64,000 nucleotides of DNA from an uncultured Phycisphaerales bacterium (GCA_963758525.1 CAVWVQ010000003.1:1216001-1280000), one strand, 5' to 3'; positions 12,748 through 64,000 are shown, counted from the stretch's first letter. The notes: generated by a model not told the origin, from the letters alone. Numbers and translations are program-made.

Positions 12748-12962
12748 CTTGAACGATAGGATAGGCAAACCGTGAACGCTTGTCAGTCATCCGCGATGCT
12801 TCCCCCCTGGCATGGGCTTCCCGCCCATGTTGGCGACGCGGAGCTTCAGAGAACTTTTGATACCAGAGACTCTTCTTTTCCCGCGTCGCTCACACGGGCG
12901 GGACGCCCGTGCCACGGGGGAATCCGATCTGATTTCACGTCATCCGGTGGTCATCCAGGTTC

Positions 12963-54054: not shown

Positions 54055-56960
54055 ATGATCTATCGGATAGAGGTGCGCGGAGAGTCAGTTGCCCAAGGCA
54101 GAAATTCCACCTCTGACCCGCTCGGGGAGACCATTCGCCGGCAAATCGCCGAATTCAGCGATGATCCCGGACCGATTCAGACGCGACGTGTTTTTCTGAT
54201 CGACAGCGACGCCGACGTCAGCGGGATGCGGCGCGTGGCCAATGAACTTCTCGCTGATCCGATCGCTGAGTCAGGCGTGCTCGTCACGACAGCCGCGGCC
54301 CCATCCGCCGGCTCCAGAATAGAAATTCATCTCAAGCCGGGCGTCATGGACCCCGTCGCGGCCTCCACGGAGATGGCCATCCGCGACATGGGGATTCACG
54401 TGACGCAGGTGCGAACGGGGCGCTGCTGCCTCTTTGAGAAACCGATCGATCGGGATCGGCTGGCGCATATCGCCGCCCGCGTTCTGGCCAATGGAGTCAT
54501 CGAATCGGTCCATTTTGAAATGTATCTTCCCGCCGATTTTGCAGGCGGGCATCTCAGTCGATTCCAGTTGCAACACGTTTCGGTCCGCGACCTGACCGAC
54601 GAGCAACTCACTAAACTCAGCCGCGAAGGCCATCTTTTCCTCTCTCTGGCCGAGATGAAGGCAATTCAGTCGTACTACCGCGAACAGAGTCGCGAGCCGA
54701 CGGATGTTGAGTTGGAGACGCTGGCACAAACCTGGAGCGAGCATTGCGTGCATAAGACGCTCAAAAGCGCAGTCGAAGTGGAGGTTCGCAATGCCTCGGG
54801 CAAAGTGGTGGAAACGCGCCGGTATGGAAACCTGATCAAGGAAACGATTTTTGCGAGCACGAAGAAGTTAATGCAGGAGAGGCACGAAGGGGCGGAGGCA
54901 CGGAGGCACGCGGAAGAGAGGCACGAAGGCACGGAGGCACGGAGGCACGAAGGGGCGGAAGAGGGGGAGTTTTGTCTTTCGGTCTTTTCGGATAATGCGG
55001 GGGTGATCGCGTTCGACGAGACGGATGCGGTTTGCTTTAAGGTCGAGACGCATAATCATCCCAGCGCGATCGAGCCGTATGGGGGGAGCGCGACCGGGAT
55101 TGGCGGGGTGATTCGCGATATTCTTGGCACGGGACTTGGCGCTAAGCCGATTGCGAACACCGACGTCTTTTGTGTCGCATCGCACGATTTTGCAAAGCGT
55201 TTGCCGCGTGGCGTGATTCATCCAAAGCGCGTTCTCCAGCAGATCGTCGCGGGGGTGCGCGATTACGGCAATCGAATGGGAATCCCCACCGTCAACGGAG
55301 CGGTTTATTTCGACGACCGCTATCTTGGAAATCCCCTGGTCTTCTGCGGCTGTGTCGGCCTGATCCCGCGCGACAAGATTCACAAGCAGTCCCGGCCGGG
55401 CGATGCCGTGGTTCTGATCGGCGGACGCACCGGGCGGGACGGGATTCATGGCGCCACGTTTTCCAGCGCTGAGTTGACCGACACCCACGCCGATGAGTTT
55501 TCACATGCCGTTCAGATCGGAAACGCGGTCACCGAGAAGAAAGTGGGTGACGTCATTCTCGCAGCGCGCGATCGCGGACTTTTTACCGCGATCACCGACT
55601 GCGGGGCGGGCGGGCTCTCCAGCGCCGTCGGGGAAATGGGGGAAAAGATCGGCGCCAGATTGCGCTGGAGAAGGTCCCGCTGAAATATGCCGGGCTGCGG
55701 CACGATGAAATCTGGATCAGCGAGGCACAGGAGCGCATGGTGCTCTCGGCGCCGAAGGACAAGCTGGAAGAACTGCTGGCGCTGGCGGCGGAGGAAGACG
55801 TTGAGGCGACGGTCATTGGGCATTTCGGAACGGAGAACCGGGAGTTGGTCCTGAACTACCACGATGCTGAGGTTGCCCGCCTCTCCATGGACTTTTTGCA
55901 CAACGGCATTCCGATGCCGACGCGGAAGGCGGTTGTGGAAATGCAGGAACAGGGGGCGGGGGCGGATGTCCCTCGGTCCGGGCACGGGTTGGAAACCCGT
56001 GGTACGGACAGGCTTCTCAAGACGCTGGCGCATCCGAACATTGCCAGCAAGCATTGGGTGATCCGGCAATACGATCACGAGGTGCAGGGTGGCTCGGTGA
56101 TCAAGCCGCTGACGGGGCCGCTGCAAATCGGGCCGTCAGATGCGGCGGTGGTTCGCCCCAAGCTCTCCAGCTATCGCGGCGTGGTAATCGGCTGCGGACT
56201 GTGCCCGCAGATTGCCGACCCCTATGAGATGACACTCGCCGCGATCGACGAAGCGGTGCGAAATATCGTTGCCGTCGGGGCGGACCTGTCGCGCGTCGCG
56301 ATCCTCGACAACTTTTGCTGGCCCAGCGTAGATGACGAAAGAACGATGGGCACGCTGGTGCGTTCCTGCGAAGCCTGCCGCGATGCCGCGCTCGCCTACG
56401 GAATTCCTTTCATCAGCGGCAAGGATTCCCTGCACAATCAATTCACCAATCAGGAAACCGGAGAGGTCATCCGCATCCCGCGCACGCTCCTGATCAGCGC
56501 CATCGGCGTGATCGAAGATGTCCGCCGGTGCATCACGATGGATTTGAAGCAACCCGGCAACCGGATCGCGACCGTCTCGGCCGCGGACGACATGCATGGC
56601 CGCGTCGCGATGCACCGCGCGTTGTCCGCTGCAATTCGCAACGGCCTGATCGTCAGTTGTCACGACAGCAGCGACGGCGGCATTCTCACAGCCGCCGCCG
56701 AGATGTGCATCGCGTCGGGGCTTGGCCTCGATATCAGCTTCGACGACGAAGACGCCGCATTTCGCGAATCAACGGCGACGTATGTCATCGAATACGACCT
56801 GTCACGTCACGATGAACTGGCCGCGTTTCTAGGCGATAAGCTCAAGGATCGTGGAGTCGTCACGGCCGAAGCACGCCTGCAAATGACGTGTGCGGGGCTG
56901 ATTACGGAAATTCCCGTCGCTGATCTGACAGGCGCGTGGCGCGGCACGCTGGATTGGTAA
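54055..56960 (+). CDS. purL: Phosphoribosylformylglycinamidine synthase PurL with PurS-like N-terminus (frameshift at ~55657)
   Basis: [31 protein letters not shown] and DCGAGG. The next frame has SEAQERM, QYDHEV, GKDSL and HDSSDGG. Confidence 0.95.
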
Positions 56961-60774: not shown

Positions 60775-60882
60775 AATAAATGGATTTGGATCGGGCGCGG
60801 GAGAAGCACGAACCGAGCGGTTGCATCTGATGATCGAGCATCATACCATCTCTTTCCCTGTAAATTCAATGTTGAGGAACCC

Positions 60883-61179
60883 GTGATTGATCTCGCAAAC
60901 ATCCGTTCGTTGAGCGATTTTCAGCGAAACACCAAAGAACATCTGAAGCGTCTCAAAAAAACCGGGGAGGCGGAGGTACTCACGGTTAACGGGCAGGCTG
61001 AATTGGTTGTCCAAAGCGCAGAGGCTTATCAAAAGCTGCTGGACGTGGCTGATCTTGCAGATTCGGTGGCGATCTTGAGGAAACGAATCGCCGCGGCGGA
61101 CACCGGCGAGAAAGGAATTGCTGCTGAGACGGTCCTGAAGCAGATCAGGCAACAGCTGCGCCTCGGAGGACTGGGGTGA
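60883..61179 (+). CDS. Phd/YefM antitoxin
   Basis: IRSLSDFQRN and VLTVNGQAELVVQSAEAYQ. Confidence 0.88.
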   Translation: MIDLANIRSLSDFQRNTKEHLKRLKKTGEAEVLTVNGQAELVVQSAEAYQKLLDVADLADSVAILRKRIAAADTGEKGIAAETVLKQIRQQLRLGGLG

Positions 61180-61504
61180 AAACCTATGCGGTAGTGTTCG
61201 ATCCTCGCACCAGGAAGAGGCACTTGAGGCAGCCGAGAATATCGCACGCTCATCTCCATCGGACGCGAAGAAATGGTTCTCCGGATTAGAGCAAATCATC
61301 GAATCACTCCGCACAATGCCTCGGCGATGCAGCCAAGCGCGGGAAAGCAAAACGCTTGGGTTGGACCTCCGGCATTACATCTATCACTCCCATCGGATCA
61401 TCTTTCGCATTGAGGAAGAAGCTCGAATTGTTCGGGTGCTTCATGTACGCCATGCCGCACGGCAGACAGTCGGTGAATCAAAAGCGCAGAGCGCAGACTC
61501 GTGA
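61176..61504 (+). pseudogene. RelE/ParE toxin with a frameshift at ~61208 (may be an assembly error)
   Basis: GTG overlapping the antitoxin stop gives MKTYAVVFDPR. The next frame reads QEEALEAA...SLRTMPRRC...HRIIFRI...VRVLHVRHAAR. Confidence 0.75.
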
Positions 61505-61555
61505 AATAAATTGGGCATTTGATTCGAGAGAGAAACGTTTCGGGAGGATCTGCAT

Positions 61556-64000
61556 CTAAGCGATCTTCTGCTCCGCGGCGGCCGCAGGCACAAGGTGCGC
61601 CTTGAGATACTGCCCCGTATAGCTCTCGGCAACCTGCACGATCCGCTCGGGGGGGCCTTCCGCAACGACTTGCCCGCCGCCGTGGCCGCCCTCCGGGCCC
61701 ATGTCGATGATCCAGTCGGCACATTTGATCACATCCAGATTATGCTCGATCACCAGGATCGTGTTGCCCAGATCGGCGAGGCGATTCAGCACGTTCAGCA
61801 GATTGTGAATGTCGGCAAAGTGCAGCCCCGTGGTGGGTTCGTCCAAAACATAGAGCGTGTGGCCGGTCGGATTTTTCCCCAGCTCGCTGGCCAGCTTCAC
61901 GCGCTGGGCTTCGCCGCCGGAGAGCTGCGTGCTGGGCTGACCCAGTTCGACGTACGAAAGGCCGACGTCGTTGACGGCTTTGAGCATCCGATGAATCTGC
62001 GGGAAGTTTTCGAAGAAGGCCAGCGCCTCCTCCACCGTCATCTTCAACACGTCGGCGACGCTTTTGCCGCGATAGTGAATCTCCAATGTCTCGGCGTTGT
62101 AGCGGGCGCCGTGACACACTTCACACTTCACATAGACGTCGGGCAAAAAGTGCATCTCGATGCACTTGGTGCCCTGGCCCTGACAGGCTTCGCAGCGGCC
62201 GCCTTTCACGTTGAAGCTGAAGCGCCCGGCTTCGTAGCCGCGAATCTTCGCCTCGCGCGTCTTGGCGAAAACCCGCCGGATTTCGTCGAAAACGCCGGTG
62301 TATGTCGCCGGATTGCTTCGCGGCGTGCGGCCGATCGGGCTCTGGTCGATCTCGATCACCTTGTCGATCTTTGCCAGTCCGTTGAGCTGCTTGTGCAGGC
62401 CGGCTTTGACTTTCGAGCCATACAGCTTGCGGCGGATGGCGGGAATCAATGTCTGATTGACCAGCGTGGATTTTCCCGACCCGCTCACGCCCGTGACGCA
62501 GATCAGACCGCCCAGCGGGAACCGCACGTCCACATTCTTGAGGTTGTTCTCACGGCACCCTTTGATCTCCAGCGCGAGCTTGTCCGGATCAACAGGGCGG
62601 CGCGTCGCCGGCGTGACGATGGCGTATTCGCCGGTGAGATATTTGATCGTGATGCTCTGGCGGTTGTTGAATACATCGGGAACCGGGCCGGCGCAGACGA
62701 GCGTCCCGCCATGGGCGCCGGCGCCGGGGCCGATGTCGATCAGATAGTCCGCGGCGCGGATGCAGTCCTCGTCGTGCTCGACCATCAAAACGGTGTTGCC
62801 GATCGACTGCAGGCGCTTGAGTGTCCGGATGAGCCGGGCGTTGTCGCGCTGATGCAGCCCGATCGTGGGCTCGTCGAGCACATAGCAGACACCGACCAGG
62901 CCGCTGCCGACCTGCGTTGCCAGGCGGATGCGCTGCGCCTCTCCGCCGCTGAGCGAGCCGGTTTTGCGGTCGAGGGTCAGGTAGCCGAGTCCGACGTCGA
63001 ACATGAATCCGAGGCGGGCGCCGATCTCGCGGACGATCGGCTCGGCGATCTTGGTGCGCTCTTCGCTGAGCCGGAGGTCCTCGAAGAATTTCCGAGCCTG
63101 TTCGACGGTCATGGTCGAGACATCGTGAATGCTGTAGCCGGGCAGGATCGCTGTCGCTCCGGTGGCAGCAGGAGCGATTTCAGCGACGCCGGAGCTCTGG
63201 TCCTCCGGCGTCGCCAGCACGGGCGGGACGCCCGTGCCACGGGGATCCAAGCGCACGGCGAGCGCCTCCTTTTTCAATCGCGTGCCGCCGCAGACCAGGC
63301 AGGGCTGCTCCGACATGTATTGGTGCATGCGCGCTTTGACGAACTCGCTCTCCGTATTCTCGAATCTCCGCTGCACGTTGGGAACGACGCCTTCGAATTC
63401 CGCGCCGGTTCCCTGATCGCCCTTTGCATCGGTGCCGTACATGAGAACTTGCTGCACCTTGCGCGGAATGTCCTTGTAGGGCATGGCGTAGTCGATGCCA
63501 AAGTCCCGGCAGAACTGGCGCAGCACCCGGCTGTACCAGATATTCATCCGCTTGCCGTTCTTGCGCCAGGCTTCGATCGCGCCGTTCTCGATCGACAGGC
63601 TTTCGTCCGGAACGATCAACTCCGCGTCAAACTTGAAAGTCGTTCCCAGGCCGTGGCATGCAGGACACGCCCCGTGCGGCGAGTTGAAGCTGAAGAGCCG
63701 CGGCTCCAATTCCGGAAGCGAAACGTGCGGATGCAGCGGACATGCGAATTTTTCACTGAAAACCTGATCGCTCCATGAGCCGTCCGGCTGCCCCACCGCC
63801 ACGATCACCAATCCCTGCGCCAGCTTCAGAGCGGTCTCAATCGAGTCGGCCAGCCGGGAGCGAATTTCCGGCTTGAGCACGATGCGATCGACAATCGCCT
63901 CGATGTTGTGAGCGAACGTCTTTTTGAGCTGCGGAGCCGCGGCCGGGGTCGGAAGCTCGGCGATTACGCCATCGACCCTGGCCCGCACGAATCCCTGCTT
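61556..64000 (-). CDS. uvrA: Excinuclease ABC subunit A, 3' part (5' end outside the window)
   Basis: FSFNSPHGAC, LSGGEAQRIRLA, GVSGSGKS, IGRTPRSNPATY and LDEPTTGLH. Confidence 0.98.
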   Translation of the reverse strand, partial: KQGFVRARVDGVIAELPTPAAAPQLKKTFAHNIEAIVDRIVLKPEIRSRLADSIETALKLAQGLVIVAVGQPDGSWSDQVFSEKFACPLHPHVSLPELEPRLFSFNSPHGACPACHGLGTTFKFDAELIVPDESLSIENGAIEAWRKNGKRMNIWYSRVLRQFCRDFGIDYAMPYKDIPRKVQQVLMYGTDAKGDQGTGAEFEGVVPNVQRRFENTESEFVKARMHQYMSEQPCLVCGGTRLKKEALAVRLDPRGTGVPPVLATPEDQSSGVAEIAPAATGATAILPGYSIHDVSTMTVEQARKFFEDLRLSEERTKIAEPIVREIGARLGFMFDVGLGYLTLDRKTGSLSGGEAQRIRLATQVGSGLVGVCYVLDEPTIGLHQRDNARLIRTLKRLQSIGNTVLMVEHDEDCIRAADYLIDIGPGAGAHGGTLVCAGPVPDVFNNRQSITIKYLTGEYAIVTPATRRPVDPDKLALEIKGCRENNLKNVDVRFPLGGLICVTGVSGSGKSTLVNQTLIPAIRRKLYGSKVKAGLHKQLNGLAKIDKVIEIDQSPIGRTPRSNPATYTGVFDEIRRVFAKTREAKIRGYEAGRFSFNVKGGRCEACQGQGTKCIEMHFLPDVYVKCEVCHGARYNAETLEIHYRGKSVADVLKMTVEEALAFFENFPQIHRMLKAVNDVGLSYVELGQPSTQLSGGEAQRVKLASELGKNPTGHTLYVLDEPTTGLHFADIHNLLNVLNRLADLGNTILVIEHNLDVIKCADWIIDMGPEGGHGGGQVVAEGPPERIVQVAESYTGQYLKAHLVPAAAAEQKIA

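Follow-up and report, generated by a model that had tools for sequence, protein, structure and literature searches.

We propose that the UvrA encoded here contains a decayed REPIN, read in frame within a turn that is predicted to be disordered, that a REP-associated tyrosine transposase (RAYT) likely inserted this element, and that the element likely persists since the turn tolerates extra residues. We hold this reading, taken as a whole, with good but not complete confidence. A REPIN is an inverted pair of REPs. The window, by which we mean the whole stretch of DNA analysed, comprises 64,000 nucleotides (G000:C3:1216001-1280000, where G000 is the genome of the window), and its features are collected in Table 1. 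The insertion route would be single-strand transposition by a RAYT, as we infer from the REP anatomy given in the accessible part of PMC6006769. Insertion would take place genome-wide, purifying selection would purge the copies that break genes, and the surviving REPs would gather between genes and in tolerant loops, such as those of uvrA, purL, carB and a DinG-type helicase. The uvrA REPIN would later have had about 25 bp of spacer deleted and its second REP eroded, and the same turn would have received independent, repeated insertions in Tepidisphaerales-like planctomycetes and in Verrucomicrobiota.

Table 1. Positions of the uvrA gene, its loop and the repeat features in the window
Feature	Position	Strand	Description
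uvrA, class I excinuclease ABC subunit A	61556..64000	-	986 aa; start about 516 bases past the window end (G000:C3:1280516)
UvrA loop D424-P459	63140..63247	-	36 residues (1 in solved UvrAs); shortly after the CxxCxGxRL zinc motif
Loop end without repeat (GATAILP)	63140..63161	-	closing LP common to 29/36 family loops
Decayed REPIN, 83 bp	63162..63244	-	CCCC + GTGG foot, perfect REP, left arm, shortened spacer, right arm, eroded second REP, second GTGG foot
Perfect REP	63218..63240	-	GTGG foot (63237-63240) + 19-nt hairpin; read R-G-T-G-V-P-P-V
Two REPIN inner arms	63180..63217	.	profile scores 12.0 and 9.6 bits; joined as a 12-bp stem with an 8-nt loop
Second-REP foot remnant	63158..63167	+	GTGG at 63162-63165; 11.1 bits; hairpin behind it eroded
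Third stem, 7 bp	63154..63177	.	63154-63160 with 63171-63177; unique in the genome, not beyond chance; one arm falls outside the REPIN
Full-length intergenic REPIN, same family	12807..12915	.	two inverted REPs, 63-bp spacer; origin of the exact 23-mer match

The repeat element in uvrA and the loop that it encodes

Judged from its sequence, the stretch at 63162-63244 is a single REPIN whose spacer would be short by about 25 bp and whose second hairpin has eroded. The REPIN profile of this genome, built from 84 element halves, runs from CCCC through the GTGG foot and a 19-nt hairpin to an inner arm of 16 nt, the spacer being most often 63 bp long, and the left half of the uvrA element is full when set against it (foot 11.7 bits, arm 12.0 bits). 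The second hairpin is lost; the element still has one REP and both arms as well as the second foot, and the arm and second-foot scores stand far above background. Over the whole genome, arm scores of at least 12 and at least 8 bits have background rates of 3.5e-5 and 7.9e-4, and foot scores of at least 9 bits a rate of 1.35e-4. The spacer loss would have brought the two arms together as a 12-bp stem, in which 63183-63194 pairs with 63203-63214.

The preliminary description of this DNA had divided the insert into three hairpins, and the structures to which it pointed are there: the 23-mer at 63218-63240 is identical to intergenic 12893-12915, the 12-bp stem at 63183-63214 is perfect, and the TCGCTCC/GGAGCGA stem of 7 bp is present. 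Three independent hairpin units were nevertheless dropped in favour of one decayed REPIN because the arms and the second foot fit the REPIN profile, while the third hairpin is unrepeated and lies half outside the element. Among 1,500 random 108-nt pieces of the genome, perfect stems of at least 12, 9 and 7 bp occurred in 0.13, 1.1 and 9.3%, respectively, and the chance of a perfect stem of at least 7 bp in 45 nt is 3.3%; since 7-bp stems are this frequent in random pieces, the third hairpin taken by itself could be due to chance. No copy of it was found elsewhere in the genome (best BLAST match 16 bp, all tested 16-mers single-copy), which rules out a second repeat family as its source. As a whole, the insert region folds more stably than its shuffled versions, with z-scores of -5.35 as DNA and -4.02 as RNA, none of the 200 shuffles doing as well in either case.

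The family to which the element belongs is abundant in this 6.47-Mb genome. The 23-mer REP has 20 exact copies and 180 within four mismatches, most of them in inverted pairs 60-80 bp apart, and a wider definition yields 255 copies in 155 elements, 72 of which are inverted pairs. By a home-made coding score that uses no annotation, only 7 of the 155 elements lie in ORFs that are coding-like on both sides. A 20-40-bp palindrome that has at one end an unpaired GT[AG]G foot, here GTGG as the consensus foot of the 84 halves, together with a high and mainly non-coding copy number, places the repeats in the GTAG superfamily of REPs as defined in the accessible parts of PMC3733652 and PMC6006769, and the inverted pairs at a characteristic spacing (modal 63 bp) make the genome family one of REPINs. 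One element of the genome is a cluster of 19 family REP copies, all on the same strand.

The host protein is a class I UvrA, with UvrB-interaction and DNA-binding insertion domains (PF17760 and PF17755 both above the Pfam cut-off), two ABC ATPase modules and zinc cysteines. Its motif set (Walker A, signature and zinc-cysteine motifs) is complete, GKS and LSGGEAQR each occurring twice and C284, C287, C406 and C409 being invariant in the family alignment. An AlphaFold2 model from 33 aligned sequences (mean pLDDT 82.3, pTM 0.74) finds solved UvrAs as its best structural matches (TM about 0.77-0.79 of the query). The protein resembles the class I UvrAs 2R6F, 3ZQJ and 9GXK in domain order, zinc cysteines, both Walker A and signature motifs and fold, and differs from them by 35 additional residues, placed early in what would be the second segment of signature domain I. 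This placement, for which the domain layout was taken from the accessible part of PMC12796330, follows the C. thermocellum range 423-506 on the assumption of a 20-residue tag offset; that part of the article makes no mention of the turn that is enlarged here.

The peptide first described between ALAVRL and YSIHDV is confirmed and lies within the open uvrA frame. The loop sits in a two-strand turn, with a short strand (421-423) before it and residue 461 after it, and its 36 residues compare with one in 2R6F and 9GXK, a net insert of 35. In the AlphaFold2 model it has no secondary structure and its pLDDT falls below 50 at residues 428-430 and 432-454, by which it is predicted to be a disordered surface turn. 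The UvrA that bears it is predicted to function normally, the loop being under weak selection only. A conserved basic DNA-binding loop is unsupported for this UvrA, as the loop has a net charge of -3 and no basic patch. The suggestion that the loop is repeat-derived, in frame and part of a repair ATPase holds for about 83 of its 108 bases; the last seven loop residues are, as far as could be seen, not repeat-derived. Public reads speak neither for nor against the insert: in three runs, none of them RNA and with a best share of 0.11, no piece among those listed spans it and depth is 0 at 63092-63173. An assembly artefact is unlikely because relatives in many genomes have in-frame repeats at the same turn, though this assembly has a probable frameshift in purL.

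The turn in related genomes and in other phyla

Among 61 genomes searched, the turn was read in 36 of the 37 family genomes and in 13 of the 24 others, 11 of the latter falling outside the sample; the uvrA of G034, which carries a frameshift, is left out of all loop counts, and G004 (flagged as unpublished) contributes one REP-free row among the 36 loops and to the alignment and tree, with no claim resting on it alone. The turn has 7-89 residues in all 36 family genes, compared with a single residue in 10 of the 13 outgroup genes and 25-38 residues in the other three. The loop is not private to this genome, and most family loops have no recognisable REP. The preliminary description would have given up a repeat origin if the insert were conserved at the protein level in distant planctomycetes without the palindrome; this is not what is seen, as what is kept is the presence of a loop and not its sequence. 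UvrA loops that end in LPG.SI belong to records titled Tepidisphaerales, Tepidisphaeraceae or Phycisphaerae.

Under a strict hairpin rule, there are 11 REPs in 4,287 loop bases (in 7 of the 36 genes, including this one) versus 2 in 96,261 other bases, and three further family loops hold other or decayed repeats as judged by eye. When these ten repeat-bearing loops are mapped onto a tree of loop-free columns, 10 changes are needed (shuffle mean 9.2) and at least four are forced by well-supported branches, the tree being the product of a quick method, poorly resolved with many open forks, and its L039 and L040 rows partly mistranslated. The variants in the loop are specific to their genomes. In the same-genus genome G002 the loop holds a full REPIN whose variant occurs 50 times in G002 and is absent from G000, and that of G007 holds another repeat family, with 71 copies there and 0 in each of four other genomes. 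For the variant in the G029 loop, no exact match to the pattern tested was found in G029, and the UvrA loops of four REP-rich family genomes (G005, G010, G015 and G016) contain no REP. The UvrA of G007 (L018) has a second insert of 64 residues, repeat-like by eye, in the linker between the ATPase halves near reference residue 617. Short tandem-repeat peptides and other hairpin families are also found in the UvrA turn (L012, L008, L079, L104, L114 and many of P0003-P0122), and several repeat classes therefore end up there.

A wider scan of 185,579 genomes asked for a REP at a distance of 8-38 bases from the conserved valine that follows CxxCxGxRL, a pattern that is conditioned on the UvrA turn, concerns the UvrA site only and is blind to variants with T at the fourth position. 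There were 47 matches, 36 in uvrA and 11 elsewhere, and of the former 30 are REP-type loops and six are short or chance matches. The 30 comprise 12 from Planctomycetota (one being a family locus already counted), 17 from Verrucomicrobiota and one labelled Methylomirabilota, with some close kin among them that have one insertion in common. The UvrA and loop of the last of these (L072) are nearly the same as those of the verrucomicrobial L075 and L115, a case of mis-binning or transfer. Junction sequences and the distance from the conserved valine vary between loops, some verrucomicrobial genes have their inserts in another frame and without the LP end, and some verrucomicrobial loops (L092 and L097) are scarcely more than the repeat. 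Among the best 120 matches to the Opitutaceae UvrA region, the loop ranges from 1 to 107 residues, six having a single residue and seven fitting the peptide rules of the REP family.

The in-frame REPs show a strong bias of reading frame, seen in the uvrA, purL, carB and helicase inserts and in L071-L117. In the 27 scan loops that pass the strict rule, the first REP is read in the GTGVPPV-type frame in 24, in the ARASRP-type frame in 3 and in the third frame in 0. This third frame is the one most often free of stops in 62 intergenic elements (83 of 124, versus 55 and 35).

Tolerance of the turn and rival readings

The linker of PurL, which is variable in length and is not part of a repair protein, served as a control. 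It was read in the best 30 of 40 matching genomes, 24 of the 30 loci having the anchor motif and 6 being dropped, and strict REPs occur in 5 of the 24. With G000 set aside, the rate is 4 of 23 for the PurL linker and 6 of 35 for the UvrA turn, and because a non-repair gene is matched at a similar rate, the comparison, which involves one control gene, favours tolerant loops over repair function as the better fit to the pattern. As to selection on the loop, dN/dS pooled over four close pairs is about 0.39 in the loop and 0.05 in the flanking core, and synonymous divergence is 0.28 versus 0.40, with the reservation that the pairs were picked for equal loop length and REP retention, a selection that lowers both loop figures. 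On these sequence comparisons the loop is far freer than the core, relaxed but not neutral, and some constraint is possible.

Several observations count against pure tolerance, namely the dN/dS value with its low synonymous divergence, the presence of a loop in every family gene read (36 of 36) and a basic patch in 20 of the 36 family loops, compared with 15 of 58 open-frame translations of genome REPINs. The reading-frame bias, the missing exact G029 copy and the fact that a single Y1 match is flanked by family REPs, of a sister variant, weigh against the main reading as well. The loop-based observations, together with the strong folding of the mRNA strand and the reading-frame bias, would suit a loop that has been co-opted, either as a disordered and often basic appendage on signature domain I that tunes DNA binding or partner contacts, or through mRNA hairpins that pace translation between domains, the repeats being the raw material and selection keeping the loop; such a reading would take in the speculation of Di Nocera and co-workers that REP inserts in repair genes alter their activity (mutator). 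We regard co-option as unlikely, however, in that the family loops have nothing in common in sequence except the closing LP and span lengths of 7-89 residues and net charges from -4 to +4, the loop studied here has no basic patch, the turn is 1 residue long in 6 of 120 Opitutaceae-like UvrAs, and a gene of purine synthesis is matched as often. Also improbable is that the turn acts as a cross-phylum landing pad, where short repeats of unrelated kinds arise, come to be translated and are domesticated in part. Once opened, the loop would then come under selection, either as a disordered appendage or as a pause site of structured mRNA, and tune nucleotide excision repair; if this were true, more than 100 independent insertions would constitute a natural series for the origin of new protein sequence from selfish DNA.

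Two further readings would replace repeated, tolerated insertion by ancestry or by targeting. A single ancestral REPIN might have founded the family loop and then decayed, with its REP ends occasionally renewed from genome copies, through gene conversion or an exchange driven by RAYT, as the loop in every family gene and the LP end in 29 of 36 would suggest; the many open forks in the tree leave room for it, and all six family loops in which the rule finds a first REP have it in the same frame. The inserts in purL, carB and the DinG-type gene are read in this frame too, however, so a shared frame is no proof of shared ancestry, and perfect hairpins persist even though the UvrAs are only 72-84% identical. 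Different repeat families occupy the loop, spacers and junction positions differ, and verrucomicrobial inserts occur in another frame and without the LP end, all of which makes a single founding element quite improbable in our view. Targeting, by which the transposase would prefer the turn itself (through a target tetranucleotide in conserved codons or exposure of single-stranded DNA in uvrA) and the hotspot would reflect preference and not survival, is to us very improbable. It would account for one turn being struck in two phyla, a codon-phased target would yield the frame bias, and the L092 and L097 loops barely exceed the repeat. It fits poorly with the variable junction sequences and distances from the conserved valine, with the equal match in PurL, and with the 1-residue turn retained by the REP-rich G053 (71 copies), the sole such outgroup read.

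The seven elements of G000 in coding-like ORFs include those in uvrA, in a DinG-type helicase gene named by Pfam and, as judged from their motifs, in purL and the carbamoyl-phosphate synthase large subunit gene (carB). In purL, a family REP is read in frame (55983-56001, plus strand) in the variable PurL linker, and a short in-frame tandem repeat of RHEG type lies near 54870-54950. The window purL (54055-56960, plus strand) is split into two frames near 55683, by an assembly indel or a real frameshift, and in relatives it is mostly one frame of about 910-1100 codons. A full in-frame REPIN lies in the carbamoyl-phosphate synthase large subunit gene (G000:C3:2158733-2158824), and two more are in membrane-protein-like ORFs (C3:257502 and C3:2489857).

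Relation to known repeat systems

The single insert is ordinary, since REP-encoded loops in UvrA have been known since 2013, including one at this very turn (PMC3733652; Di Nocera, De Gregorio and Rocco 2013). The accessible part of that paper lists intragenic REPs, many in repair genes, among them both uvrA genes of Opitutus terrae and one of Thioalkalivibrio, and gives the Oter_3168 insert as a GTAG-19 dimer at residues 440-462 of 999. In this 999-aa protein the GTGVPPV peptide is in the same turn as here, and the peptides encoded here match the GTAG-19 rows of supplement 3, which at the level of peptides is support for, and not proof of, GTAG-19 identity. The known and present cases share the gene and an in-frame REP dimer that supplies 20-30 residues, and for O. 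terrae also the first peptide, GTGVPPV, and the turn after the zinc motif; they differ in that the genome here is planctomycete-like and the dimer is decayed. According to the same part of the paper, inserts within one functional category are at differing sites, with Xanthomonas recB excepted, whereas here insertions recur at one turn in two phyla and are as frequent in a gene unrelated to repair. What our sequence comparisons appear to add is that members of two phyla share this recurrent site, along with an initial control that speaks against an effect specific to repair genes; a literature search, with most subscription journals outside its coverage, found no report of a recurrent insertion site in UvrA. 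PMC3733652 offers two readings of such inserts, neutrality in flexible loops or the mutator speculation, and the comparison makes its question testable, namely whether repair genes are tagged for altered repair or for tolerant loops. The UvrA turn naturally accepts from 1 to more than 100 residues and is likely a safe site for internal tags, and its inserts form a natural series on how mobile repeats turn into protein sequence.

The genome family also resembles the REPIN/REPtron systems with TnpA(REP) (RAYT) HUH-Y1 enzymes, as treated in the accessible part of Quentin et al. (2018; PMC6006769), in its GT[AG]G 5' foot hairpin, its copy number in the hundreds with most copies outside coding sequence, its inverted pairs at fixed spacing and a Y1 gene that encodes an NHVH motif and lies between REPs. 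It is unlike them in that the sole REP-flanked Y1 found here lies in the reading frame of a DinG-type helicase, between REPs of a sister variant whose foot is GTAC and which is not the uvrA variant. This REPtron-like, REP-bracketed unit (L070, G000:C3:1311202-1313916, minus strand) lies about 31 kb past the window in a helicase frame of 905 codons, with a full REPIN right after the stop. The genome, which is 91% complete, has 23 Y1 transposase matches, and no free-standing cognate RAYT was found among them, the other 22 having no family REPs within 1.5 kb.

Rickettsia palindromic elements (RPEs), reportedly first described in the papers of Ogata, are another case of palindromic repeats that are read in frame and add a peptide to housekeeping proteins. 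The likeness to the element here, as far as RPEs are covered in the accessible part of PMC3733652, ends with the foot: intragenic RPE-4 and RPE-6 of R. conorii are placed there in the CGTC superfamily, without a dedicated transposase, and RPE-1 is longer. The uvrA element is of REPIN type with a GTGG foot in place of a CGTC tag or an RPE sequence family, and it is set apart from RPEs by this foot and by the descriptions.

Two small genes converge on the end of uvrA at about 60880-61505 (plus strand) of the window, and from their motifs they presumably resemble a Phd-type antitoxin and a ParE/RelE-type toxin.
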